From contig JBBQGB010000008.1 in the NCBI GenBank assembly GCA_038322575.1, positions 3,559 through 67,558 of the forward strand: DNA of 64,000 nucleotides, in the 5' to 3' direction. Position 1 is the first letter of the stretch, and each line of letters starts with the position of its first letter. The notes below the pieces were generated by a model. It saw nothing but the letters and a program-made list of their open reading frames with translations, was not told where the DNA came from and searched no databases. This document shows positions 34,150 to 46,139 of the stretch, in pieces. This DNA comes from Actinomycetales bacterium (GTDB lineage: Bacteria; Actinomycetota; Actinomycetes; Actinomycetales; Angustibacteraceae). The translations under genes and the position numbers were made by a program.

Positions 34150-35126
34150 CCGGTGGCTGGGACGAGGTGCACGTCGTCCGGCTGCCCCTGCGGGTGCGCT
34201 TTCGCGGCCTCATGGAGCGCGAGGGCCTGCTGCTGCGCGGGCCTGCCGGCTGGGGCGAGTTCTCGCCGTTCGTCGAGTACGACGACGCCGAGTCCGCCCG
34301 CTGGCTCGCCGCCGCGGTCGAGGCCGTGACCGCATCGCCGCCGGCCGCCGTCCGCAGCCAGATCCCGGTCAACGCGACGGTCCCGGCGGTGCCGGCGGCC
34401 GACGTCGCGGACGTGCTCGCCCGTTTCGCCGGGTGCACGACCGCCAAGGTCAAGGTGGGCGAGCGCGGGCAGGCGCTCGCGGACGACGTCGCCCGGGTCG
34501 CCGAGGTGCGCGCGGTGCTCGGGGCGGCCGGTCGCATCCGGGTCGACGCCAACGGGGCCTGGGACGTCGACGAGGCGCGGCGCGCGCTGACAGCCCTGGC
34601 GCCGTACGGGCTCGAGTACGCCGAGCAGCCCTGCGCGACGCTGGACGACCTCGGCCGGCTGCGGGTCGCCCTGGCCCGGGCCGGGGTCGACGTGCTGGTC
34701 GCGGCGGACGAGAGCATCCGCAAGGCCGACGACCCGCTGAAGGTCGCGGCCGCCGGCAGCGCCGACCTCGTGGTGCTCAAGGTCGCCCCGCTCGGCGGGG
34801 TGCGCACCGCCCTCGCGGTGGCCGAGCAGTGCGGGCTGCCCGTCGTGGTCTCCTCGGCCCTGGACACCTCGGTCGGCATCGCGGCCGGTGTCGCGCTGGC
34901 GGCGGCCCTGCCCGACCTGCCGTTCGCCTGCGGGCTGGGCACCGCGGCGCTGTTCGCCCGCGACGTCGTCGACCCGCCGCTGCGGCCCGTCGGCGGAGCG
35001 ATCGACGTCGCCCTGGCCGCCGCGACGACGCCCGACCTGGCCGCACTGGCCGGGCTGGCCGCCCCCGAGGACCGCCAGCGGTGGTGGCGCGAGCGGCTCC
35101 ACCGGTGCCTGGCACTGCTGCCGTGA
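34146..35126 (+). CDS. menC: o-succinylbenzoate synthase
   Basis: Enolase-superfamily pattern: TAKVKVG, RIRVDANGAW, LEYAEQP, ADESIR, VLKVAPLGG. The GTG overlaps the upstream stop (GTGA). Confidence 0.85.
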   Translation: MTGGWDEVHVVRLPLRVRFRGLMEREGLLLRGPAGWGEFSPFVEYDDAESARWLAAAVEAVTASPPAAVRSQIPVNATVPAVPAADVADVLARFAGCTTAKVKVGERGQALADDVARVAEVRAVLGAAGRIRVDANGAWDVDEARRALTALAPYGLEYAEQPCATLDDLGRLRVALARAGVDVLVAADESIRKADDPLKVAAAGSADLVVLKVAPLGGVRTALAVAEQCGLPVVVSSALDTSVGIAAGVALAAALPDLPFACGLGTAALFARDVVDPPLRPVGGAIDVALAAATTPDLAALAGLAAPEDRQRWWRERLHRCLALLP

Positions 35127-36373
35127 CCACGGGCCGGCTCCGGGTGGCGCTGACGGCACTCGCGCTCACCGCGGTGCTGGCCGCCACCGTGGTGGCCGGC
35201 TGCGCGCCCAGCGAGCGACCCGCTCGAGCCGCCGGCAGCGCCCGCGTGGTCGACCCGGCGTCCTTCGGCCTGAACACGCCGCACTCCGCGGCGACCGTCC
35301 CGTACGGGGCGCTGCGGCTGTGGGACACCCGCACCACCTGGGCGCACCTGCAACCCGCGCGCGGCGTGTTCGACTGGGCCAGGCTGGACGGGTACGTCGC
35401 CCGGGCCCGAGCCCAGCGCGTCCCGGTGCTGCTCGTCCTGGGTTCGACACCCGCCTGGGCCGCGACCCAGCCCACGGCCCCGGGCGCCGGGTGGCTGGCG
35501 CGGGGCAGCTCGTCGCCGCCCCGCTCGGACGCCGACTGGGTGGCCTACGTCGACGCCGTCGTCGCCCGCTACCGCGGTCGGATCGCGGCCTACCAGATCT
35601 GGAACGAGGCGCAGTCGCCGCAGTTCTGGAAGGGCACGCCGGGGGGTCTGGCGCACCTCACGCAGCTGGCGGCAGCCCGGGTCGCCGCCCTGGACCCCGC
35701 GGCGACCGTGGTGGCGACACCCCTGCAGCCCAGGCAGTCGGGCTGGCAGGCGTGGTCGGCCGCATACCTGAGCGCGCTGGCGGCACGAGGCTGGCCGGTC
35801 GACGTGTTCGCCGTGCACTCCTACCAGCCGGACGCGCTCGCGACGCCGGACGGGCGGTTCGACCTGCTGCGTCAGGCGCAGTCGGTGCTGCGGGCGGCCG
35901 GTGCGCCGCGCCGTCCACTGTGGGACACCGAGGTCAACTACTCGAGCCCCGCCTTCGCCGCGCACCCGGTGCGGGGCCAGGCGGCCGCTGACTGGACTGC
36001 GCGCACCTACCTCGACTCGATCCGCCTCGGCGTGGCCCGCACCTACTGGTACGCCTGGGACGACCCGATCGACGTCCTCGGGGTCACGATGAGCCCCGGC
36101 GGCCCGAGCCAGCGGGCGTTCACCACGCTGCAGGAGTGGCTGGCCGGCAGCACGTTCCGCGGGTGCGTCTCGCCCACCCCGGCCAGGGGGGCGGTCGTGA
36201 CGGCGTGCACGTTCACGACGGGCGCCCGGCGCTTCCTCGTCGTGTGGGCGGCGGCCGGCGGCAGCGCCCCGGTGCCGGTGCCGGCCACGTCGATCTGCGG
36301 TCTGCTGAGCGGGTGCCGACCCGTGGACAGGCGCACGTCGATCACCACCTCGCCGGTGCTGCTGCGGCCGTAG
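35123..36373 (+). CDS. lipoprotein with clan GH-A glycoside-hydrolase-like (beta/alpha)8 signatures
   Basis: Signal peptide plus lipobox (LAATVVAGC). A candidate acid/base is in YQIWNEAQ and a candidate nucleophile in LWDTEVNY. The GTG overlaps the menC stop (GTGA). Confidence 0.6.
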   Translation: MTTGRLRVALTALALTAVLAATVVAGCAPSERPARAAGSARVVDPASFGLNTPHSAATVPYGALRLWDTRTTWAHLQPARGVFDWARLDGYVARARAQRVPVLLVLGSTPAWAATQPTAPGAGWLARGSSSPPRSDADWVAYVDAVVARYRGRIAAYQIWNEAQSPQFWKGTPGGLAHLTQLAAARVAALDPAATVVATPLQPRQSGWQAWSAAYLSALAARGWPVDVFAVHSYQPDALATPDGRFDLLRQAQSVLRAAGAPRRPLWDTEVNYSSPAFAAHPVRGQAAADWTARTYLDSIRLGVARTYWYAWDDPIDVLGVTMSPGGPSQRAFTTLQEWLAGSTFRGCVSPTPARGAVVTACTFTTGARRFLVVWAAAGGSAPVPVPATSICGLLSGCRPVDRRTSITTSPVLLRP

Positions 36374-36415: not shown

Positions 36416-38101
36416 GTGAACCCCTCCACCGCACTGGCCACGGTGCTCGTCGACGAGCTGGTGCGCGGCGGCGTCCGGCACGCGGTGCTGTGCCCGGGGT
36501 CGCGGTCGGCACCGCTGGCGTACGCGCTGCACGCCGCGGACGCCGAGGGCCGGCTCGCGCTGCACGTGCGGGTCGACGAGCGCAGCGCGGGTTTCGTGGC
36601 CCTGGGCCTGGCGAAGGCGAGCGGGCCGGTGGTGGTCGTGACGACGTCCGGGACGGCGGTCGCCAACCTGCACCCGGCGGTGCTCGAGGCCGACCACGGC
36701 GGGGTGCCGCTGGTGGTGATGACCGCCGACCGTCCGCCCGAGCTGCGCGGCACGGGCGCCAATCAGACGACCGACCAGGTGCGCTTCTTCGGTGCCGCAG
36801 CGCGGTTCGCCCACGACCTCGGCGTCCCCGACGAGCGGCCCGGCCAGGTCGCGACCTGGCGCGCCGTGGTGGCGCGGGCGCTCGCGGCGGCGACCGGGTC
36901 GCGCGGGGCCGCCCCGGGCCCGGTGCAGCTCAACGTCCCCCTGCGCGAGCCGCTGGTGCCGGACGACGACCCGTCCTTCGTCGAGCCGCTGGACGGTCGC
37001 TCGGGCGGGGCGCCCTGGGTGCAGGTGGCGGCGCGGCAGGCCCTCGCGGGCAACCCGGCGCTCGGACCCCGGACGGTGGTGCTCGTCGGTGACCTGCCGA
37101 CCGGTGGCCCCGACTGGGGGGCGCTGGCCGCCGACCTCGCCGACGCGGGCGGGTGGCCGCTGCTCGCGGAGCCGTCCAGCGGCGGGGCCTGGGCGCGGGC
37201 GCTGCCGGGCGGCTCGCTGCTGCTCACCTGCGCGGACTGGGTCGACCGGCACCGGCCGGACGCCGTCCTGGTCGTCGGGCGCGTCACCCTCAGTCGCGCG
37301 GCGGCCGCCCTGCTGCGGCACGACGGCACCGTCGTCGAGGTGGTCAGCGACGACCCGACCTGGCCCGACCCCGGTCACCGCGCCCACCGCGTGCACCCGC
37401 TGGCCGCGCTGGTCGACCCGATGGCCCAGGGCGCGCTCGACGCCGACTGGCACGGCCGCTGGCAGCAGGCAGCGGCGCGGGTGGCGGCCGCCGCGCGCCC
37501 CGTGGTCGAGGGCAGCTGGCCGTCGGCGCCCGCGGTGGCCGCGGCCGTGGCCGCGGCCCTGCCGCCGGACGCCGTGCTGTTCGTGGGGTCGTCCAACCCC
37601 GTGCGCCACCTGGACCTGGTCGGCCGCGCGGGCGCGCGCGTGGTGGCCAACCGCGGGCTCGCCGGCATCGACGGCTGCGTGTCGACGGCGACTGGGCTGG
37701 CGCTGGCAGGCTCGGTGCCGACGTACGCGCTGGTCGGCGACCTCACGTTCGTCCACGACACCGGGGCGCTGGTGGTCGGCCCGAACGAGCCGCATCCCGA
37801 CCTCACCGTCGTGGTCGTCAACGACGACGGCGGCGGGATCTTCAGCCTGCTCGAGCCCGGTGCCCCCGAGCGCGCCGCGCCGTTCGACCGGGTGTTCGGA
37901 ACCAGCCACGGAACCGACCTGCAGAACCTTTGCGCCGCAACGGGTTCGCGGCACGTCCGGGTGACCGACCCGTCCGGGCTCACCGACGTCCTCGGCGAAC
38001 CACCGCGGGGCGTCACGGTGGTCGAGGTCACCGTCGACCGCACCGCGCACCGCGGCCTCGACGCGGCGCTGCGGGACGCGGCAGCGGCAGCCACCGGCTA
38101 G
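36416..38101 (+). CDS. menD: 2-succinyl-5-enolpyruvyl-6-hydroxy-3-cyclohexene-1-carboxylate synthase
   Basis: TPP enzyme with MenD-type N-terminus (LVDELVRGGVRHAVLCPGSRSAPLA, TSGTAVANLHPAV.EA, LVVMTADRPPELR..GANQT) and a C-terminal GDLTF.HD...NNDGGGIF. Confidence 0.9.
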   Translation: MNPSTALATVLVDELVRGGVRHAVLCPGSRSAPLAYALHAADAEGRLALHVRVDERSAGFVALGLAKASGPVVVVTTSGTAVANLHPAVLEADHGGVPLVVMTADRPPELRGTGANQTTDQVRFFGAAARFAHDLGVPDERPGQVATWRAVVARALAAATGSRGAAPGPVQLNVPLREPLVPDDDPSFVEPLDGRSGGAPWVQVAARQALAGNPALGPRTVVLVGDLPTGGPDWGALAADLADAGGWPLLAEPSSGGAWARALPGGSLLLTCADWVDRHRPDAVLVVGRVTLSRAAAALLRHDGTVVEVVSDDPTWPDPGHRAHRVHPLAALVDPMAQGALDADWHGRWQQAAARVAAAARPVVEGSWPSAPAVAAAVAAALPPDAVLFVGSSNPVRHLDLVGRAGARVVANRGLAGIDGCVSTATGLALAGSVPTYALVGDLTFVHDTGALVVGPNEPHPDLTVVVVNDDGGGIFSLLEPGAPERAAPFDRVFGTSHGTDLQNLCAATGSRHVRVTDPSGLTDVLGEPPRGVTVVEVTVDRTAHRGLDAALRDAAAAATG

Positions 38102-38134
38102 TGGTGTGTCTCAGCCGGTCACCCGACGGGTGAA

Positions 38135-38184
38135 GCCCCGACAACGGGGCAACGGGGCGTCAGATGTGACGCGCAGTTGCCCCG
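38135..38184. terminator. nested/alternative GC-rich hairpins in the convergent menD / phosphatase gap (likely bidirectional terminator)
   Basis: Three pairings are visible: GCCCCG-acaa-CGGGGC (38135-38150), CGGGGCAAC (38145-53) with GTTGCCCCG (38176-84), and an inner GCGTCA-gatg-TGACGC. Confidence 0.4.
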
Positions 38185-38230
38185 ATCAGCCACATAGATG
38201 CTCTGTCGTCGCGCTCGTCGAAGCGCACCT

Positions 38231-39487
38231 CTAGCTCGAATCGACCTCGACGATGAGCAGGGCGACGTCGTCGTCGGCCGCACCGGCGTCCAGGCGCGAC
38301 AGCAGGACGTCGGCCAGCTCGTCCGGGTGCCCGGCGTCGGCGCCGGTCGCCACCTGACGCAGCTGCTCGAGGCGTGCGTCCAGCGACGTGCCGCGCACCT
38401 CGACCAGACCGTCGGTGTAGAGCACGAGCACGTCGCCGGGCACCAGCCGGTGCTCGTGGTCGTGCCGGTCGCTGCCCGGGTCGACCCCCAGCATCAGGTC
38501 GACGCTGGTCTCCAGGAAGTCCGCCCGGTCGCCGCGCACCAGCAGCGGCGGCAGGTGGCCCGCGTTGGTCCACTGCAGCCGCCACGTGCCGTCCCCGTCG
38601 GGGTGCAGCCGCGCGACCACGCAGGTGCCGGTGGCGTCCAGGGCCAGGGTGGCCGACGTCCGCTCCAGGCGGGTCACGACGCCGCTGGGCGACTCGGCGC
38701 GGTCGACGGCGTGGGCCCGGACGGTGTGCCGCAGCGCCGCCATCCGGGCCGCGGCGCTGACGTCGTGGCCGCTGACGTCGCCGATGACCACCACCAGGTC
38801 GCCCTCGACCGCGAAGGCGTCGTACCAGTCGCCCCCGACGTCCAGACCACGGGTGGCGGGGGAGTAGCGCGCAGCCAGGTGCAGCCCGGGCACCGCGGGC
38901 AGCGGCGGCAGCAGGCTGGTCTGCAGGGCGGTCGCCACGGCGCGCTGCACCTCGAGCAGCCGGGCCGCCTCGAGGGCCACACCCAGGTGTGCGGCGACGT
39001 CGGCCAGGGCCGTGACGTCGTCGGGGCGGAACGTGGTGCGGGTGCCCAGGGTCAGCACGCCGACCGCCGTGTCGCGGGCGGCCAGGCGGATGAGCAGCAC
39101 CTCGTGCGCCCCGTACGACAGCGCCATCGCCGCCTGGGCGGCGCGGTGCGGGTCGCCGGAGGCGGCCACCGCGGCCAGCTCGGGCGCCCGCAGGTGCATC
39201 GTCGCGTCGGGGGACCGCAGCAGGGTGGGCAGCAGACCCTGCGACCCGGCCGAGGACCGGCGCGGTGACCGCTGGCCGGGTGACCGCGACCCCATCGACA
39301 CGGGCAGCGCGAGTGCGCCGTCGGCGCCGTACGCCGCGACGCGCACGACGAGGTCGGGGTCGTCCAACCGGTCGGCGATGACCCAGTCCGCCACCGCGAG
39401 CAGCACCCGGGCGCTGCGATCCAGGATGGTGGCGCTGTCGGTGGCCGACGACGTGGCGCGCACGACGTCGGTGAGCAGGTCGGGCAT
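38231..39487 (-). CDS. GAF-domain PP2C-family (SpoIIE-type) protein serine/threonine phosphatase
   Basis: N-terminal GAF-like ~180 aa. The C-terminal PP2C motifs are GGDWYDAF, VVIGDVSGHD and LVLYTDGLVE. Confidence 0.8.
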   Translation of the reverse strand: MPDLLTDVVRATSSATDSATILDRSARVLLAVADWVIADRLDDPDLVVRVAAYGADGALALPVSMGSRSPGQRSPRRSSAGSQGLLPTLLRSPDATMHLRAPELAAVAASGDPHRAAQAAMALSYGAHEVLLIRLAARDTAVGVLTLGTRTTFRPDDVTALADVAAHLGVALEAARLLEVQRAVATALQTSLLPPLPAVPGLHLAARYSPATRGLDVGGDWYDAFAVEGDLVVVIGDVSGHDVSAAARMAALRHTVRAHAVDRAESPSGVVTRLERTSATLALDATGTCVVARLHPDGDGTWRLQWTNAGHLPPLLVRGDRADFLETSVDLMLGVDPGSDRHDHEHRLVPGDVLVLYTDGLVEVRGTSLDARLEQLRQVATGADAGHPDELADVLLSRLDAGAADDDVALLIVEVDSS

Positions 39488-39491
39488 CTGC

Positions 39492-40202
39492 TCAGGCCCT
39501 CAGGTGGTGGTCGAAGAACGCGAGCATGCGCGCCCAGGCGTCGTCAGCCGCGACCGGGTCGTGGCCGAGGCCGGCAACCCGCTCGAGCGACGCGAACGGA
39601 CCGGTGCGGTGCTGGTTGAGGAACGAGTGGCCGGCGTCGGGGTACTCCTTGACGTCGTGCTCGACCCCCAGCTCGGTCAGCACGGACTCGAGCCGGCCGG
39701 CCACCCCGCGCAGCATCGGGTCGCGCCGTCCGTAGCTCGCGACGACCGGGCAGGCGCCGGCCAGGACGGTGCGCGCCTCACGCGGCAGCGGCCCGTAGCT
39801 CGGCGCCGCTGCGTCGAAGCCGCGGGCGGCCAGCAGCAGCGCGAACCCCCCGCCCATGCAGAACCCGAGCACCCCCACCGGCCCGGCGCAGTCCGGCCGG
39901 CCGGTCAGCCAGTCGCGGACGGCCAGGACGTCGTCGACGGCCGCCCCGTGCCCGCTGGTCAGGGCGCCGAACGTCGCCCGCAGGCACCGCAGGGCGCCGC
40001 CGGCGCTGAACAGGTCGGGAGCGACGGCGAGGAACCCCGCGCCCGCGAGCCGGTCGTTCTGCCGGCGGATGTCGTCGGTGAGGCCCAGCAGCTCGTGCAG
40101 GACGACGACCCCCGGCCACGGCCCCCCGCCGCCGGGTGGCACGGAAAGGTGCGCGCGCAGCAGGGGCGTGCTCACCCCACCGGGCACCAGGACGTCGACC
40201 AT
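39492..40202 (-). CDS. dienelactone hydrolase family protein
   Basis: Has VVVLHELLGL, the nucleophile region GVLGFCMGGGFAL, and a late D...H (YPDAGHSF). Its end lies 4 nt from the phosphatase start. Confidence 0.8.
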   Translation of the reverse strand: MVDVLVPGGVSTPLLRAHLSVPPGGGGPWPGVVVLHELLGLTDDIRRQNDRLAGAGFLAVAPDLFSAGGALRCLRATFGALTSGHGAAVDDVLAVRDWLTGRPDCAGPVGVLGFCMGGGFALLLAARGFDAAAPSYGPLPREARTVLAGACPVVASYGRRDPMLRGVAGRLESVLTELGVEHDVKEYPDAGHSFLNQHRTGPFASLERVAGLGHDPVAADDAWARMLAFFDHHLRA

Positions 40203-40267
40203 GAGCTGATCCTGTCAATATCACCGGCCGTGGCGCCAGCGTGACTCGGTGCCACCACCGGCTCGGG

Positions 40268-41344
40268 CTAGCCCGACCGGCGGCGGTCCAGCCCCCAGAC
40301 GACGGCGGCGTGAGGGAACGTCAGGGCCAGCAGTACGCCGACCTCGGCCTGCAGCCCGGCCAGGTCGCGGGCCCACCACAGGCCCAGCACCGCGAGCAGC
40401 GCCACGGCGGCCGGCAGGGCCGCGGCCCGGGCCAGGACGCGACCGGCGGTCGACCACGCGGGGGTGGCCCCCTCGTCGGAGCGGTCGGAGCGGTCGGAGC
40501 GGTCGGAGCGGTCGGAGCGGTCGGAGCGGTCGGACCGCGCGGCCCCGCGGGCCAGGTCGAGCAGCCGGCCGGTGTGGCGCAGCGAGTGCCACAGGCCGAA
40601 GTAGACGCCGAAGGCAGCCAGCGGCGGCGCCAGGGTGAAGGTCGCGGCGAGCAGGGCCAGCTCGGCCGCCTCCAGGTGCCGGCGGGCGCGCACCAGGACG
40701 ACCAGGGCCACGACCACGCTGACGGCGAGGAGCACCAGACCAGGCACCCGGGCCGCCTGGGCCGTCTCGGCGAGCCGCGGTGACAGGCCGGCCAGCAGGA
40801 CGCCGATGTCGCGGGGCCGGGCCCACAGCAGCAGCCCCACGACGACCGCGCCGTGCGCGAGGGCCAGCGACCAGTCCTCGCGGGAGGTGGGCACCCGGCG
40901 TCCGGCCCGCTCGGCGGAGGTCACGACCTCGCCGCGGCCGAAGTGGACGGCGGACAGCACCAGGAAGGCCGCCAGCGCCGGGGTCGGGGCGAGGAGGAAG
41001 GCGCCGAGCGCGAGGGCGGCGACGGCGGCGTACGCACCGGCGAACAGCGCCAGCCGCGTCGTGCTCGGGCGGCGCGAGCCGCCGCGCGGGTCGCCGGCAC
41101 CCCACCACCACGGGACGAGGTGGTCGACGGCGCCGTGCGGGACGCCCAGGGCGACACCCACCAGGGCGAGGGGCAGGGCCAGGGACGAGGTCAGGGCGGG
41201 CGCAGCGACGGCGAGCAGCAGGAGCGAGCCCATCGCCGCCACCGGGACCCAGGTGAGCCAGGGCAGGGCCTGCATGGCAGGGCCCGAACGCGCACCGACC
41301 GGCCACCGCGAGGTCGCGGTGGCCGGTCGGTGCAGCAGGGACAT
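40268..41344 (-). CDS. blh: Brp/Blh-family beta-carotene 15,15'-dioxygenase (retinal synthase)
   Basis: Polytopic membrane protein with the four conserved His contexts GVPHGAVD, SAVHFG, FGLWHSLRH and TFPHAAV. It lies 16 nt downstream of the rhodopsin gene. The start could alternatively be the internal ATG at 41275. Confidence 0.85.
   Translation of the reverse strand: MSLLHRPATATSRWPVGARSGPAMQALPWLTWVPVAAMGSLLLLAVAAPALTSSLALPLALVGVALGVPHGAVDHLVPWWWGAGDPRGGSRRPSTTRLALFAGAYAAVAALALGAFLLAPTPALAAFLVLSAVHFGRGEVVTSAERAGRRVPTSREDWSLALAHGAVVVGLLLWARPRDIGVLLAGLSPRLAETAQAARVPGLVLLAVSVVVALVVLVRARRHLEAAELALLAATFTLAPPLAAFGVYFGLWHSLRHTGRLLDLARGAARSDRSDRSDRSDRSDRSDRSDEGATPAWSTAGRVLARAAALPAAVALLAVLGLWWARDLAGLQAEVGVLLALTFPHAAVVWGLDRRRSG
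40475..40537 (-). repeat. in-frame 9-bp tandem repeat (GTCGGAGCG x6 plus one imperfect unit) encoding (RSD)n inside blh
   Basis: Direct reading of 40475-40537. The translated loop is ARSDRSDRSDRSDRSDRSDRSDEG, between the FGLWHSLRH helix and the last TM segments. Confidence 0.95.
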
Positions 41345-41360
41345 GAACGTCAGCCGATCC

Positions 41361-42209
41361 TCAGACCCGAGCGCCGCTGGGCGCCGTGGCGTCCGGCACG
41401 AGCTCGTCGTCGGAGTACGTCGGGTCCTCGAGACCGCTCTTGACGCGGGCGATCTTGTAGATGGCCAGGCCGTACGCCGCCTTGGCGAAGATGTCGGCGA
41501 GGCTGTAGCCGCCCTGGCGCAGGACGAACCCGCTGGCGCCGCCGAAGAAGTCGCCGCCGATCATCGGGAACAGGTAGGCGATGGGGTAGACGCCCCACAG
41601 GCCGACCAGCGCGAGGCGGAGCATCTTGATCGTGTGCTGCACCTCGACGGGCTGGCGCACCAGCGAGCGCGACAGCTCGACGAACAGCACGTAGAGCAGG
41701 TAGATGAAGGGGATCGTCGACAGGAAGCCCCACAGCGCGCGGGAGCCGACGGTGGTGGCGATCTCACCCGGGTAGCCGAGCAGGATCATCAGGGCCGAGG
41801 CCGGCACCAGCTTGTAGAGCAGCCCGCGCTGGGCGACGCGGCCCAGGGCCATGACGGCGACCGTCTCGACGAGCAGCAGCGGCACGGTCAGCAGCCAGTC
41901 GACGTACCGGTAGGCCTCGTTGAACTCGATGTTCGAGAGGTTGTGCGGCGCGCTGACCGAGCTGCCCGGGGGGTAGCTCTCGTTGAAGTTGCTGAAGATC
42001 CGGAAGTAGTGGTACGCCGCGATGCCACAGACGATCGCCGAGACGACCAGTGCGTTGCGGTAGCGCGGCGCGACGCGCCCGCGCGAGAGGAGCAGGAACA
42101 GCGCCGTGAAGAGCATCGACGCGATGACGAGTGAGAAGAGGTTGTAGACGGTGGCGAACTGACCCGCGGAGAGCGAGGGGATGTTGACGCCTGATACGTC
42201 GGTGAGCAT
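41361..42209 (-). CDS. microbial (type-1) rhodopsin, proteorhodopsin/xanthorhodopsin-clade outward proton pump type (DTE motif)
   Basis: Seven TM segments. Helix C is RYVDWLLTVPLLLVE (D/T/E) and helix G is SLADIFAKAAYG (Asp-x3-Lys Schiff base). Helix B has the His in AAYHYF. The start is taken at ATG 42209 (GGGAG 6 nt upstream); the ORF-track start at 42233 adds 8 aa. Confidence 0.9.
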   Translation of the reverse strand: MLTDVSGVNIPSLSAGQFATVYNLFSLVIASMLFTALFLLLSRGRVAPRYRNALVVSAIVCGIAAYHYFRIFSNFNESYPPGSSVSAPHNLSNIEFNEAYRYVDWLLTVPLLLVETVAVMALGRVAQRGLLYKLVPASALMILLGYPGEIATTVGSRALWGFLSTIPFIYLLYVLFVELSRSLVRQPVEVQHTIKMLRLALVGLWGVYPIAYLFPMIGGDFFGGASGFVLRQGGYSLADIFAKAAYGLAIYKIARVKSGLEDPTYSDDELVPDATAPSGARV

Positions 42210-42296
42210 GACGACTCCCAGGTGATGCGGCACCTATGCCGCCTTCTTCGTGACCACTCACCGAGGGCTCGGCGAGGCAGGGCCAGTTCTACGCCC

Positions 42297-42335
42297 GGTG
42301 AAGATCCAAGAGCAACTCGTGCAGGTTTGGTGAAG
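42297..42335 (-). promoter_or_regulatory. two GGTGAAG (CTTCACC on the coding strand) direct repeats 32 bp apart in the regulator-rhodopsin spacer (candidate operator/promoter region)
   Basis: Copies are read at 42297-42303 and 42329-42335. They are located 90-125 nt upstream of the rhodopsin start. No consensus was tested. Confidence 0.25.
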
Positions 42336-42343
42336 CGCTTTGG

Positions 42344-43261
42344 TCACGGCACCGCCGTCGCCGAGGCGCGGCGCGCCCACGCGAGGGCGAGGCGGTCGAC
42401 CGCGTCGGCCAGGCTCACGCACAGCGTCGCCGGCCCGCCGTCGACGCCGGACCACCCCGGCCCACCCACCAGCAGCATGAGCCGGCGGTGGGCTCGGGCG
42501 ACGGCCGTCAGCCCCGGTGCCGCAGCACCGTCGGGCGAGCTGAGCCACACCAGGACGCCGGCTGCCCGGGTGCGGCGCGCCGCGCTGGCCAGGGACGTCA
42601 TCGGCGTCCGCGCCCCCAGCAGCCGGGCCGGCACCCCCTGCTCGGCCAGGGCCGACCGCACGGCGTGCAGCGCGAGGACGTGCTCCTCGTGCGGGCCACC
42701 CGCGAGCAAGACGGGGTTCTCTCGTGCAGGTTCGGGAAGACGCGCGACGTGACGGACGAAGGCGGTGGTCAGCGCCTGGGTGAGCATGTGCTCGACCTCG
42801 ATGCCCTCGCCGGTGCGCTGCCAGTGCTCACCGGCGGCGACGAGCACCGGGCGCAGCGCCAGGTCCCACGCCGTCAACGTCCCCTGCTCGCCGAGCAGGT
42901 CCAGGACGGTGTCCTCGACGGCCATCTCGTCCAGGCGCGCGGCCGCCCGGGCCAGGCCCCGGGCCGCTCTGCCGGCGCCCGGCACCGCGAGCACCGCGCC
43001 GCCGGGCCCGCCGCGGCGCGGGGGGCCCGGGGGACCTGGCGCGACGCCGTTGACGAGGGCGGCCGCCGCGGCCGGGCTGGTGCCCGACACCACGGCCTCG
43101 TGCACCTGCTGGAGCCGCTGGAGGTCCTCGGCGGTGAAGCGCCGGTGGCCACCGGGCGAGCGGGCCGAGGCGGTCAGCCCGTAGCGCCGGCCCCACATGC
43201 GCACTGTCGAGGCGGACACACCCAGCCGGGCGGCCACCTCACCCACCGGCAGCAGGCTCAC
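42344..43261 (-). CDS. MerR-family regulator with C-terminal cobalamin-binding domain (CarH/LitR-like candidate B12 photoreceptor)
   Basis: The N-terminal MerR HTH is VGEVAARLGVSASTVRMWGRRYGL...GGHRRFTAEDL. Downstream are W147-x9-E157-H158 (WQRTGEGIEVEH) and PHEEH194VLAL, followed by a Rossmann-like LLGARTP...GVLVWLS...LMLLVGGPG. Confidence 0.7.
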   Translation of the reverse strand: MSLLPVGEVAARLGVSASTVRMWGRRYGLTASARSPGGHRRFTAEDLQRLQQVHEAVVSGTSPAAAAALVNGVAPGPPGPPRRGGPGGAVLAVPGAGRAARGLARAAARLDEMAVEDTVLDLLGEQGTLTAWDLALRPVLVAAGEHWQRTGEGIEVEHMLTQALTTAFVRHVARLPEPARENPVLLAGGPHEEHVLALHAVRSALAEQGVPARLLGARTPMTSLASAARRTRAAGVLVWLSSPDGAAAPGLTAVARAHRRLMLLVGGPGWSGVDGGPATLCVSLADAVDRLALAWARRASATAVP

Positions 43262-43272
43262 GAGGGCTCGTC

Positions 43273-44544
43273 TCAGCGCCGGGCGAGGGCGTCACGCATC
43301 GGCACCAGCTTCGCGTCGCTCTCGGCGAGCTCGGCCTCGGGTGCCGACCCGGCGACGATCCCGCACCCGGCGAACAGCCGCAGCCGCCCGGCGTCCCGGT
43401 CGACCTGGGCGCAGCGCAGGGCGATGCCCCACTCGCCGTCACCGCGACCGTCGATCCACCCCACCGGCCCCGAGTACCGGCCGCGGTCCATGCCCTCGAG
43501 CTCGCGGATGGCCCGCAGGGCGACGGGTGTGGGCGTTCCGCAGACGGCCGCCGTCGGGTGCAGGGCGGCGGCCAGGCCGAGCGAGCTGGCGCCGTCCGCG
43601 AGGACACCGGCGACGTCGGTGGCCAGGTGCATGACGTTGGCCAGGTGCAGCACGAACGGCGACTCGGGGACGTTCATCGACGAGCAGTGCGGTGCCAGGG
43701 CCTCGGCGAGGGACCGGACGGCGTACTCGTGCTCCTCGAGGTCCTTGCTGCTGCGCGCGAGCGACCCCGCGAGCACCAGGTCGTGGTCGTCGTCGCCGGT
43801 GCGCCGGATGGTGCCGGCCAGCACCCGCGAGTGCACCAGCCCGCGCTCGAGGCGCACCAGCAGCTCGGGGGTGGCGCCGACCAGGCCGTCGACGGCAAAG
43901 GTCCAGCACCCGGGGTAGCGCTCGGCCAGCCCGGCCAACAGCCAGCGCGGGTCGACGGCGCACTCGGTGGTCGCCAGCAGGTCACGTGCCAGGACGACCT
44001 TGTCGACCGCCCCGGTGCCGATGCGTGCCACGGCGGCCGCGACCACCTGCTCCCACTGTGGTCCGGTCATCGCACCGTCGGCGTAGGCCACCTCACCGGG
44101 GGCGAGCGGCTCGTGGGGACGCAGCCGGGGCGCGGCGGCCAGGGAGGCCTCGGGGGCGATGGTCGTCACCCACCACCGACCGGCCCGGTGGCCGACGACG
44201 ACCTCGGGCACCACGAGCGCGCCCCCCTCGGGCGAGCGGTCGTCGAAGGAGAACGACCCGAACGCGACCGGCCCGCTGCCGGGCAGGCCGACGTCGTCGC
44301 GCACCACGGTGCGGGCGAGCAGCGCCCGCCACCACTGCTCGGCGTCGGCGAACTGCGACCCGCCCGCCGCGGTGAAGCGGGCGGTCTGGCCCCACCCGAC
44401 CAGACCCTCGCCGCGGCGCACCCACGACAGCACCGGCGTGTCCGGCAGCAGGGCCAGCAGGGGGCCGGGGTCGGCGATCTCGCTGGTCCGCACGACCAGC
44501 CCCAGCACGGGGTCGCCGTCGAGCGACGCGGTGAGGATCGACAC
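43273..44544 (-). CDS. menF: isochorismate synthase
   Basis: Chorismate-binding domain: [64 protein letters not shown]. The start is taken at GTG 44544. Confidence 0.85.
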
Positions 44545-44650
44545 GCGGTCAAGAGTAGGTCGCCGTGCTCGCACCCGCCGGGGGAGTGGCGCGGAGCGCG
44601 GTGGCGCGCAGCCCGGTGGCGCGCCGCACCGCCGGTGCGAGGATGACGGG

Positions 44651-45349
44651 GTGAGCAGAGCGAGTCTGGCCAAGGCGCCCCACGAGGTCGCCGCGATGTT
44701 CGACGACGTGGCCCGGCGCTACGACCTGACCAACGACGTGCTGTCGCTCGGCCAGGACCGCGCCTGGCGGCGCGCGGTCGTGCGGGCCGTCGACCCGCGA
44801 CCGGGCACGGTCGTCCTCGACCTGGCCGCCGGGACGGGCACCAGCAGCGAGCCGTTCGAGGTGGCCGGTGCACGGGTGGTGCCCGCCGACTTCTCGCTGG
44901 GGATGCTGCGGGTGGGCAAGCGCCGCCGTCGCGACCTGGGCTTCACCGCCGCCGACGCGCTGCGGCTGCCGTTCGCCGACGCCTCGTTCGACGCCGTGAC
45001 GCTGTCGTTCGGGCTGCGCAACGTGGCCGACACCGACCTGGCCCTGCGTGAGCTGCTGCGGGTGACCCGCCCCGGTGGGCGCCTGGTGGTGTGCGAGTTC
45101 AGCCGGCCGCGCTGGGCGCCGTTCCGCCGTGTGTACGTCGACTACCTCGTGCGGGCGCTGCCCGGCGTGGCGAGGGTCGTGAGCTCCAACCCCGAGTCCT
45201 ACGTCTACCTCGCCGAGTCCATCCAGGGCTGGCCGGACCAGGCCGCACTGGCCGCGCGGGTTCGCGCCGCGGGCTGGGACGACGTCGCCTGGCGTGACCT
45301 GTCCGGCGGGATCGTCGCCCTGCACCGCGGCACCCGACCGCTCGTCTGA
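44651..45349 (+). CDS. menG: demethylmenaquinone methyltransferase
   Basis: UbiE/MenG signatures: [55 protein letters not shown]. The GTG at 44651 is divergent from menF. Confidence 0.9.
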
Positions 45350-45434
45350 GGGACGGCGCCCGAGATGCGCGATCGGTCCCCCGGGGGTTGACTCGCAGTC
45401 GTAGGCGCGACCCCAACCGAAGGAGCTGACGGGC

Positions 45435-45608
45435 ATGGGCCTGGACGACAAGCTGAGCAACGCCAAGGACGACCTGCAGGGCAAGGCCAAGGAGGCCACC
45501 GGCAAGGTCACCGACAACGAGCGGCTCGAGGCCGAGGGCAAGGCCGACCAGTCCGCCGCCGACGCCAAGGCGGCCGGCGAGAAGGTCAAGGACGTCTTCA
45601 AGCACTGA
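45435..45608 (+). CDS. CsbD-family small stress protein (57 aa, below the ORF-track cutoff)
   Basis: ATG at 45435 lies 9 nt after GAAGGAG. The translation is MGLDDKLSNAKDDLQGKAKEATGKVTDNERLEAEGKADQSAADAKAAGEKVKDVFKH, the classic CsbD pattern. Confidence 0.7.
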   Translation: MGLDDKLSNAKDDLQGKAKEATGKVTDNERLEAEGKADQSAADAKAAGEKVKDVFKH

Positions 45609-45624
45609 CCGCCCCGACGTTCCT

Positions 45625-45660
45625 GCGGCCGGCCCTCTGACACACCGGGGGGCCGGTCGT
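45625..45660 (+). terminator. GC-rich hairpin after the csbD-like gene (possible terminator, no U-tract)
   Basis: CCGGCCC (45629-35) pairs with GGGCCGG (45650-56), extendable by G-C/G-U pairs. It lies 17 nt after the stop. Confidence 0.3.
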
Positions 45661-45725
45661 CGTCATGCTGCGAGGTCATAGACTGCGACGGTGCTCGTGA
45701 ACCGGGTCACAAGCGGCCCGGCAGC

Positions 45726-46139
45726 ATGTCAACCGAGAACCAGCAGCACGACCAACCAGCAGAGGGGAGCGGGAGCGGCGTGAACCCCTATGTGCCGATC
45801 CTCGTCCTGTTCGCCATCGGCGCCGGCTTCGCGGTCTTCTCGGTCCTGGCCGGGTCGCTGTCGGGACCCAAGCGCTACAACCGGGCCAAGCTCGACGCCT
45901 ACGAGTGCGGTATCGAGCCGACCCCGCACGCCGTGGGCGGCGGCCGGTTTCCCGTCAAGTACTACCTGACAGCGATGCTCTTCATCATCTTCGACATCGA
46001 GTCGGTGTTCCTGTTCCCGTTCGCGGTCGGCTTCGGCCAGCTCGGGATCTTCGCCCTCGTCGAGATGGTGCTGTTCATCCTCACCGTGTTCGTTGCGTAC
46101 GCCTACGTCTGGCGTCGCGGCGGGCTGGAATGGGACTGA
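45726..46139 (+). CDS. nuoA: NADH-quinone oxidoreductase subunit A
   Basis: Has YECGIEP...[24 protein letters not shown] and three TM segments. It is first in the nuo operon. Confidence 0.9.

Follow-up and report, generated by a model that had tools for sequence, protein, structure and literature searches.

The subject of this report is a run of five genes that lies between the menaquinone biosynthesis genes menF and menD in a 64,000-nucleotide stretch of DNA (the window) from an actinobacterium of the family Angustibacteraceae. From the menF side, these genes encode a litR/carH-like regulator, a rhodopsin, the beta-carotene 15,15'-dioxygenase Blh, a dienelactone hydrolase (DLH) family protein, and a GAF-PP2C phosphatase. 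We consider it likely that this 5.1-kb segment is a composite gain made in the ancestor of the genus, and that its proximity to the men and nuo genes is an accident of where it landed rather than a coupling favored by selection. On this interpretation, the segment would have been gained and fixed in the common ancestor of the genus, and its landing place would be a convergent intergenic spacer in which insertions are frequent across this order. One module, litR-rhodopsin-blh, would be a self-contained, light-gated cassette for retinal phototrophy that passes between actinobacteria of soil and freshwater, and the other, DLH-PP2C, would be an unrelated unit.

The window is located on contig C8 of a metagenome-assembled genome (MAG; G000) of 134 contigs and 3.41 Mb that is 90.6% complete. 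The GC content of this contig is 73-79%. With two congeners (G001 and G002), the genus is represented by three genomes. Domain calls for the open reading frames (ORFs) of the window are based on Pfam and NCBIfam scans (Table 1). These scans bear out the gene order, strands, and domain content that a preliminary description had given for the run from menF to the phosphatase, and the intergenic gaps of 11, 110, 16, 65, and 4 nt given there are arithmetically right for the longest ORFs. The menD gene on the plus strand converges with this minus-strand run, and menG, a csbD-like gene, and nuoA-N diverge from menF.

Origin of the insert

Rhodopsin genes are present in 8 of 61 related genomes, including all three genomes of the window's genus and none of the 12 other genomes of the same family, some of which are incomplete MAGs (completeness 62-100%). 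The menF and menD genes are convergent neighbors in nearly all genomes of the order that carry both on one contig, and in most genomes of the order the gap between them measures from 30 bp to a few kb with the pair still convergent. This gap is 100-165 bp in four genomes of the same family (G005, G009, G013, and G014), 30-130 bp in four genomes of other families (G036, G049, G048, and G025), and 1.3-5.7 kb in five other same-family genomes (G003, G011, G006, G012, and G007). The larger spacers carry a PAP2 phosphatase, an M1 peptidase, and an MFS transporter in G007; APH, esterase, and BNR proteins in G012; a BNR-repeat protein in G011; and a PH-domain protein in G003. No ORF was called in the spacer of G006. 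A tblastn search (E 1e-8) of the menD/menF spacers of relatives detected no match to any of the five window genes, which occupy this spacer in the window's genus alone (three genomes). On the other side of menF, menG-(csbD)-nuoA-nuoB remain attached to it in nine same-family genomes outside the genus. Judging from gene order, the menD/menF spacer is therefore a variable and frequent landing site within a conserved men-nuo block. The preliminary description had proposed an insertion into such a block and had suggested a synteny comparison with rhodopsin-less relatives. This comparison upholds the proposal, because the spacer in these relatives is empty or otherwise filled and none of the five intervening genes is present there.

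Among the three congeners, the synonymous divergence (dS) of the inserted genes is 0.11-0.51, versus 0.27-0.31 for menF. Because these values are comparable, the gain appears to be older than the split of the three species. Furthermore, the ratio of nonsynonymous to synonymous divergence (dN/dS) of the inserted genes is 0.13-0.33, which indicates that all five have been maintained by purifying selection.

A quick IQ-TREE analysis of rhodopsins places the genus inside a clade supported by the SH-like approximate likelihood ratio test (SH-aLRT 95). This clade consists mostly of Intrasporangiaceae/Dermatophilaceae and unclassified Actinomycetales bins, and it also includes Motilibacteraceae and Sporichthyaceae. 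Identity to these clade genomes is 55-70% for menF versus 77-84% for the rhodopsin, a difference that does not by itself identify a donor.

Several observations weigh against a gain by transfer. No tRNA and no flanking pair of direct, inverted, or att-like repeats was found at the insert, and no integrase or transposase Pfam domain is present in the ORFs scanned, which cover ~29.2-62 kb of the window. The composition of the insert is host-like. Specifically, the five genes fall at percentiles 16-59 for GC content at third codon positions (GC3) and 11-74 for synonymous-codon likelihood, and the dinucleotide distance of the insert ranks at the 73rd percentile among random segments of 5 kb. The incompleteness of some of the family MAGs that were compared is a further point of this kind. 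Thus, the marks by which genomic islands and integrative elements are classically recognized (integrase, tRNA, repeats, deviant composition) are lacking, and with neither a mobility signature nor foreign composition, transfer is deduced solely from synteny and distribution. The comparison of GC3 and codon usage that the preliminary description had suggested yields no foreign signature and, because the insert is host-like, is uninformative.

The fully host-like composition would also suit vertical inheritance, in which the family ancestor already carried the menF-menD block with its insert, which then disappeared from every other genus. The menD/menF spacer is plainly an unstable site, and the predominance of Intrasporangiaceae/Dermatophilaceae and Actinomycetales bins in the rhodopsin clade is compatible with this history. 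However, the insert would have had to vanish without a scar at least five separate times (genera g2 to g6), compared with one gain, the clade extends to Motilibacteraceae and Sporichthyaceae, and the tblastn search detected no remnants in the spacers. We therefore regard vertical inheritance with loss as very unlikely and favor a single gain in the ancestor of the genus.

Composition of the insert

The surroundings of related rhodopsin genes were surveyed with one genome per GTDB species, which gave 80 rhodopsin loci encoding proteins 54-95% identical; neighbors were identified by tblastn within 8 kb. The litR gene is directly upstream of the rhodopsin gene and co-directional with it in about 35 of the 80 loci, and blh is directly downstream in about 30. 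The order litR-rhodopsin-blh, without DLH or PP2C, is found in about 30 other actinobacterial species. These cassettes occur in Motilibacteraceae, Sporichthyaceae, Intrasporangiaceae/Dermatophilaceae (Humibacillus, Terracoccus, and Lapillicoccus), Geodermatophilaceae (Geodermatophilus, Blastococcus, and Modestobacter), and Nakamurella; the carriers include the cultured strains Humibacillus sp. DSM 29435 and Geodermatophilus obscurus DSM 43161. The gene upstream of litR in eight loci that were checked belongs to seven different families (WYL regulator, Sap, radical-SAM, CtaG, HAD hydrolase twice, helicase, and MMPL). Because the neighbors differ in this way, the trio of litR, rhodopsin, and blh appears to be a portable unit.

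The remaining two genes have another distribution. Only one full-length orthologue of the PP2C phosphatase was found outside the genus, in the same-family genome G004 (59% identity by HMMER and 58% by tblastn), and all other matches outside the genus are paralogues with at most 49% identity. In G004, this orthologue lies 18 nt behind a DLH gene that is 71% identical to that of the window, where the corresponding distance is 4 nt. The pair is flanked by recC and a TetR gene, the contig that carries it has no men genes, and rhodopsin was not found in this assembly, which is 80% complete. It seems reasonable to conclude that DLH and PP2C form an independent pair. A recC-adjacent origin of the pair was checked in G000, where recC is split over contig ends.

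The preliminary description had treated the five genes as one phototrophy module. This view is contradicted both by the trio, which travels without DLH and PP2C in about 30 species, and by the DLH-PP2C pair next to recC in a genome where no rhodopsin was found. DLH-PP2C would accordingly be an unrelated two-gene unit, presumably with a function in stress signaling. We also considered whether the DLH protein might be the missing MenH. This assignment is not favored, because every relative lacks the pair at its men locus and G004 has it beside recC.

The rhodopsin

The protein matches PF01036 (Bac_rhodopsin) with 124.5 bits and aligns with Gloeobacter rhodopsin (GR; 6NWD), xanthorhodopsin (3DDL), and 9HFK at E values of 1e-67 to 1e-79. 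Its identity to these xanthorhodopsin-clade structures is presumably about 55-60%, a figure that is our estimate. In helix C, the segment DWLLTVPLLLVE supplies the residues D-T-E, which match GR D121/T125/E132 column for column (proteorhodopsin (PR) positions 97/101/108), and the Schiff-base Lys in SLADIFAKAAYGL is matched by the corresponding Lys in 6NWD and 9HFK. A Leu occupies the position aligned with PR 105, the known green/blue tuning site. Likewise, a Gly is conserved at the position aligned with GR Gly178, the carotenoid-antenna window. A look-up of the exact protein sequence retrieved no record. These features suggest that the rhodopsin is a DTE outward proton pump of the xanthorhodopsin/actinorhodopsin type. 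The longest ORF begins at GTG 42233, but the start is most likely ATG 42209, which we prefer because it is preceded by the Shine-Dalgarno sequence GGGAG, which is conserved, like the ATG itself, in about 30 homologous loci. With this start, the spacer between litR and the rhodopsin gene is 134 nt long.

The genes for pigment synthesis are unlinked in G000. A crtB-crtI-crtYc/Yd cluster is found on contig C94 (3115-6236), and a second carotenoid cluster, on contig C9 (6035-13700), has two crtI-like genes, crtB, and cyclase domains. Beta-carotene for the cassette would be supplied by these two clusters.

The LitR/CarH-like regulator and its candidate operator

The regulator scores above the cut-offs for PF13411 (49.2 bits) and PF02607. 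Its B12-binding domain match (PF02310) reaches 24.3 bits, below the cut-off of 32.1, and its best NCBIfam match, NF052513 CarH, is likewise under its cut-off. The protein aligns to Thermus thermophilus LitR/CarH (3WHP, 5C8D) with conservation of the W-x9-EH motif and of the lower-axial His: GEHWQRTGEGIEVEH is aligned to GEAWHRGEIGVAEEH of 3WHP, and PHEEHVLAL to PGERHEIGA. By comparison with 5C8D, the W-x9-EH motif would form the cap and the His would ligate the cobalt.

Upstream of the rhodopsin gene is a 14-bp palindrome, AACCTGCACGAGTT, that we propose as a candidate LitR operator. It abuts a -35-like TTGCTC (42315-42310), which is separated by an 18-nt spacer from a -10-like TAGAAC (42291-42286). 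An alignment of the spacers of 36 loci reveals the same architecture, consisting of the palindrome AACTTGCACAAGTT, TTGnnn, an 18-nt spacer, TAnnnn, and then GGAG and ATG. The palindrome fits the CarH repeat nAnnTnnACAn. Furthermore, of the 35 loci with litR, about 30 have the palindrome 80-130 nt upstream of the rhodopsin gene, and it is nearly absent from loci that lack litR. Among the three congeners, the litR-rhodopsin spacer is 93-97% identical, compared with 81-98% for coding regions and 66-93% for other spacers, and its conservation exceeds that of every other spacer tested and of all neighboring genes except the small csbD. A search of Rfam with positions 37800-46000 returned no match, so the conserved spacer does not correspond to a known riboswitch or leader. 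We infer that this spacer carries a conserved operator and promoter that are the candidate target of LitR. Two points weigh against this assignment. The promoter hexamers are weak, and a sigma-70 consensus scan found no promoter, a scan that is poorly suited to actinobacteria with 75% GC. A companion scan for terminator consensus sequences, which suits such genomes equally poorly, gave only two weak sites, at chance level.

The exact 14-mer of the operator occurs once in the 3.4-Mb G000 genome. We considered whether the operator is repeated near the crt clusters as part of a LitR regulon; looser matches exist on other contigs, but none is located in the crt clusters of C9 and C94. A second copy of an operator half, AACCTGCACGAG, is found at 42719-42732 inside litR (+529), ~400 bp upstream of the main site. 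About 17 of 36 homologous loci have a word resembling AAnnTGCACAAG at litR +520 to +580, within the linker that precedes the B12-binding domain. This internal copy may be an auxiliary operator or may reflect a coding constraint.

In our model of the cassette, the adenosylcobalamin (AdoCbl)-bound CarH/LitR-type protein would occupy the palindrome abutting the rhodopsin -35 in the dark, and light would release it. The congener G001 offers a natural litR-null state that bears on this proposal. Its litR gene has suffered an internal deletion of ~840 bp that leaves the first ~14 and last ~9 codons (L014, G001:C306 5197-5392), with TGGG microhomology at the deletion junction. This genome has otherwise kept the spacer with the operator as well as intact rhodopsin and blh genes, with dN/dS values of 0.18-0.33 for these two genes. 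The loss of litR beside an intact, constrained rhodopsin gene is easier to reconcile with a dispensable repressor than with an activator that is essential.

The same evolutionary history might instead be combined with a LitR protein that activates the rhodopsin promoter in the light. A palindrome immediately upstream of, and overlapping, the -35 element is in a position that is also used by class II activators, and the weakness of the -35 and -10 hexamers is likewise in keeping with this reading. Streptomyces LitR is reportedly a light-dependent activator at litS. However, the retention of rhodopsin and blh in G001 after the loss of litR speaks against activation, as does the fact that the closest solved homologues are the repressor-type CarH/LitR proteins of T. 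thermophilus. We therefore judge an activator unlikely and retain the dark repressor as the working model.

Hairpins around blh

The identity of blh is supported by PF15461 (142.8 bits, cut-off 28) and TIGR03753 (157.8 bits, cut-off 95.25). Between the rhodopsin gene and blh, a perfect hairpin begins 27 nt past the rhodopsin stop codon. The 116-nt region around it has a predicted folding energy of -74.4 kcal/mol (z = -5.7), and the hairpin is nearly invariant in the congeners. Of 30 other loci, 23 have an equally strong hairpin (dG <= -40) of different sequence after the rhodopsin stop, a folding energy reached by only 3% of random 110-nt segments taken from these loci. Because structure is conserved here and sequence is not, the element might be a terminator, an attenuator, or a stabilizer that uncouples opsin levels from blh levels. 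In our model, the hairpin would pass only part of the transcripts into blh and thereby provide much opsin and little of the retinal-forming enzyme. Counting against termination, the hairpin lacks a U-tract and is inside the longest blh ORF, so that its role as terminator is only a candidate one beside attenuation and mRNA stabilization. Because it falls within the first 23 codons of this ORF, blh may actually start at ATG 41275, which would give a gap of 85 nt after the rhodopsin gene.

Another hairpin, which is largely conserved in the congeners, encloses the blh stop codon and precedes the 65-nt gap to DLH. It is possibly a second terminator.

Within blh, G000 also carries an in-frame, perfect 9-bp tandem repeat (GTCGGAGCG x 6.7, at 40475-40534). 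No run of two or more exact GTCGGAGCG units is present in the blh gene of either congener, which suggests a recent expansion specific to G000.

Transcription and proximity to the men and nuo genes

The menF start was read from the sequence as GTG 44544 rather than the TTG of the longest ORF, and menG starts at GTG 44651, which leaves a divergent menF/menG spacer of 106 nt. The menF gene is not truncated, given that its orthologues in family relatives, which are 75-78% identical, align over residues ~12-423. The menF stop codon is 11 nt before the litR start, and this gap contains no hairpin and has no room for a promoter. In other cassettes with a co-directional gene before litR, this gap is at least 30 nt and mostly 46-120 nt by a crude ORF-based estimate. 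Because litR lacks its own upstream spacer in this genus, it is plausible that it is co-transcribed with menF, an arrangement that would be specific to this genus.

In the menF/menG spacer, presumably a divergent promoter region, the 15-bp unit GTGGCGCGCAGCCCG is repeated in tandem (2.6 copies, at 44586-44624). This spacer is poorly conserved, and its identity among the congeners is only 66-76%.

The preliminary description had raised the possibility of read-through transcription from menF. This expectation is plausible for litR but not beyond it, given the promoter and operator that the rhodopsin gene appears to have and the hairpins after rhodopsin and blh. Judged by sequence, the stretch from menF to PP2C thus contains candidate internal promoters and terminators and does not read as a single operon. 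A further, and quite unlikely, possibility is that read-through past both hairpins places the DLH-PP2C signaling pair under light control.

A stronger version of this idea holds that the five genes form one phototrophy module kept beside the men and complex I genes so that light-driven and respiratory generation of proton-motive force is co-regulated, for example by menF read-through. The tight co-directional run, with 11 nt and no hairpin between menF and litR, is in keeping with it, and the arrangement is kept in all three genomes of the genus. There is also a precedent of sorts. According to Kovalev et al. 2020, as cited in a preprint (bioRxiv 10.1101/2024.05.16.594530), heliorhodopsin genes are flanked by nuo clusters in some aquatic actinobacteria, and the window resembles these loci in having a rhodopsin-family gene near complex I genes in an actinobacterium. 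Heliorhodopsins, however, are a different rhodopsin family that is not known to pump, and the proximity of rhodopsin and nuo genes in the window is confined to a single genus, where the insertion site accounts for it.

The survey argues strongly in the other direction. A menF, menG, nuoA/B, menD, DLH, or PP2C gene is within 8 kb at only 1 of the 80 rhodopsin loci, and this locus belongs to the congener G002 ('Actinomycetota bacterium ant_bin.614'). The other 79 loci have no men or nuo neighbors within this distance. Cassette neighbors differ in other lineages, DLH-PP2C exists in a genome where no rhodopsin was found, and the rhodopsin gene has a conserved candidate promoter/operator of its own followed by a strong hairpin. 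Moreover, three genomes of one lineage amount to a single event. We consequently rate a selected, co-regulated module as highly improbable. The preliminary description had read the locus as a design that unites two proton-motive-force generators; with such neighbors at the congener's locus only, the link to quinone and complex I genes looks incidental, and functional coupling of the two generators is not supported. The position of the insert beside menG and nuoA-N would be an outcome of the landing place.

A narrower connection can be imagined on the basis of the short menF-litR gap. If litR, 11 nt behind menF, is transcribed together with it, then capture of litR by the menF unit might cause the dose of repressor, and with it the threshold for induction of the pump, to be set by the expression of menaquinone biosynthesis. 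We view this as quite unlikely. If true, it would constitute a newly evolved link in this genus from respiratory-chain status to phototrophy.

Neighboring features

The preliminary description had called the convergent gap between PP2C and menD hairpin-rich. A palindrome is indeed present there, but it is merely one copy of a dispersed repeat of ~70 nt that resembles a repetitive extragenic palindrome (REP) or a miniature inverted-repeat transposable element (MITE). The repeat has matches at dozens of further places in G000, and those by blastn that are 84-96% identical (40-73 nt, E<=1e-3) occur on 17 other contigs. The repeat is absent from the menD/PP2C site in G001 and G002, where the gap is about 50 nt and unalignable. 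Upstream of menD is a GH-like gene (window 34433-36373) that has tandem duplicates in G007 (L009, G007:C58 1218-3615); both copies are ~54-55% identical to the C-terminal part (residues 277-645) of the window gene.

Table 1. Genes and sequence elements of the menD-to-nuo region, with positions in the window.
Feature	Position	Strand	Basis or remark
menD, SEPHCHC synthase, right flank of insertion	36416-38101	+	TIGR00173, 378 bits
Dispersed ~70-nt palindromic (REP- or MITE-like) repeat copy	38117-38193	.	PP2C/menD convergent gap
GAF-PP2C (SpoIIE-type) phosphatase	38231-39487	-	PF07228; GAF under gathering score
Dienelactone hydrolase (DLH) family protein	39492-40202	-	PF01738
Hairpin, ~14-bp stem, blh stop codon in loop	40247-40290	-	-51.1 kcal/mol, z = -2.4
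blh, beta-carotene 15,15'-dioxygenase, retinal synthesis	40268-41344	-	PF15461, TIGR03753
Perfect 20-bp-stem hairpin	41292-41333	-	Inverted repeat I8, 100% complementary
Rhodopsin, xanthorhodopsin/actinorhodopsin-type DTE, predicted proton pump	41361-42209 (longest ORF to 42233)	-	PF01036
Candidate LitR operator, 14-bp palindrome AACCTGCACGAGTT	42314-42327	-	Family consensus AACTTGCACAAGTT
litR/carH-like regulator, MerR helix-turn-helix (HTH) + B12-binding	42344-43261	-	PF13411, PF02607, PF02310; best NCBIfam CarH
menF, isochorismate synthase, left flank of insertion	43273-44544	-	PF00425 and TIGR00543 above cut-off
menG, demethylmenaquinone methyltransferase	44651-45349	+	NF001241, 380.8 bits
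csbD-like small gene, between menG and nuoA	45435-45608	+	PF05532, 60.2 bits
nuoA to nuoN	from 45726	+	Divergent from menF

Comparison with known systems

Opsin-blh cassettes and CarH/LitR photoreceptor-repressors are each established. In the former, a proteorhodopsin or xanthorhodopsin gene is accompanied by blh and in some cases also by crtEIBY. Such rhodopsin 'photosystem' cassettes, spread by lateral transfer, have reportedly been described in marine bacteria and archaea by Frigaard 2006, McCarren & DeLong 2007, and Sharma 2006. The cassette in the window is like them in that the opsin gene is directly followed by blh, in its patchy distribution, and in the appearance of the same cassette in unrelated contexts. 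It differs in being headed by a B12-type light regulator, in lacking crt genes, which are on other contigs, and in its location between menF and menD.

Class I AdoCbl photoreceptor-repressors of the CarH/LitR type are known from Thermus thermophilus (5C8D/3WHP), Myxococcus xanthus, Bacillus megaterium, and, as LitR, Streptomyces, and are known to control carotenoid genes or the sigma factor LitS. The regulator in the window shares with these proteins the MerR HTH and B12-binding domains, the W-x9-EH motif, and the lower-axial His, and its candidate operator likewise overlaps the -35 element and fits the CarH repeat. In contrast, its adjacent target would be a proton-pump rhodopsin, its site consists of one 14-bp palindrome in place of three tandem repeats, and litR has no upstream spacer of its own in this genus. 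With the xanthorhodopsin/Gloeobacter rhodopsin/actinorhodopsin clade, the window protein, a predicted pump, has in common the DTE motif, the Leu at the position aligned with PR 105, and the Gly at the position aligned with GR Gly178. Our search of the open-access literature found neither a described LitR-rhodopsin cassette nor a rhodopsin inserted in a men cluster, which does not in itself prove novelty.

Implications

We regard the genes inserted between menF and menD as a gain of an ordinary kind, but one that is well resolved and well delimited. As such, it would provide a clean and datable case of non-phototrophic soil actinobacteria acquiring rhodopsin phototrophy, in which a three-gene, apparently self-regulating cassette entered a neutral convergent spacer and was then kept by purifying selection. 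The by-products of the analysis are testable, and include the 14-bp candidate LitR operator, the structurally conserved hairpin between opsin and blh, and the natural litR deletion in a congener. The locus also counsels caution against inferring function from neighborhood, because the position of the rhodopsin gene by the quinone and complex I genes is a feature of one lineage only.

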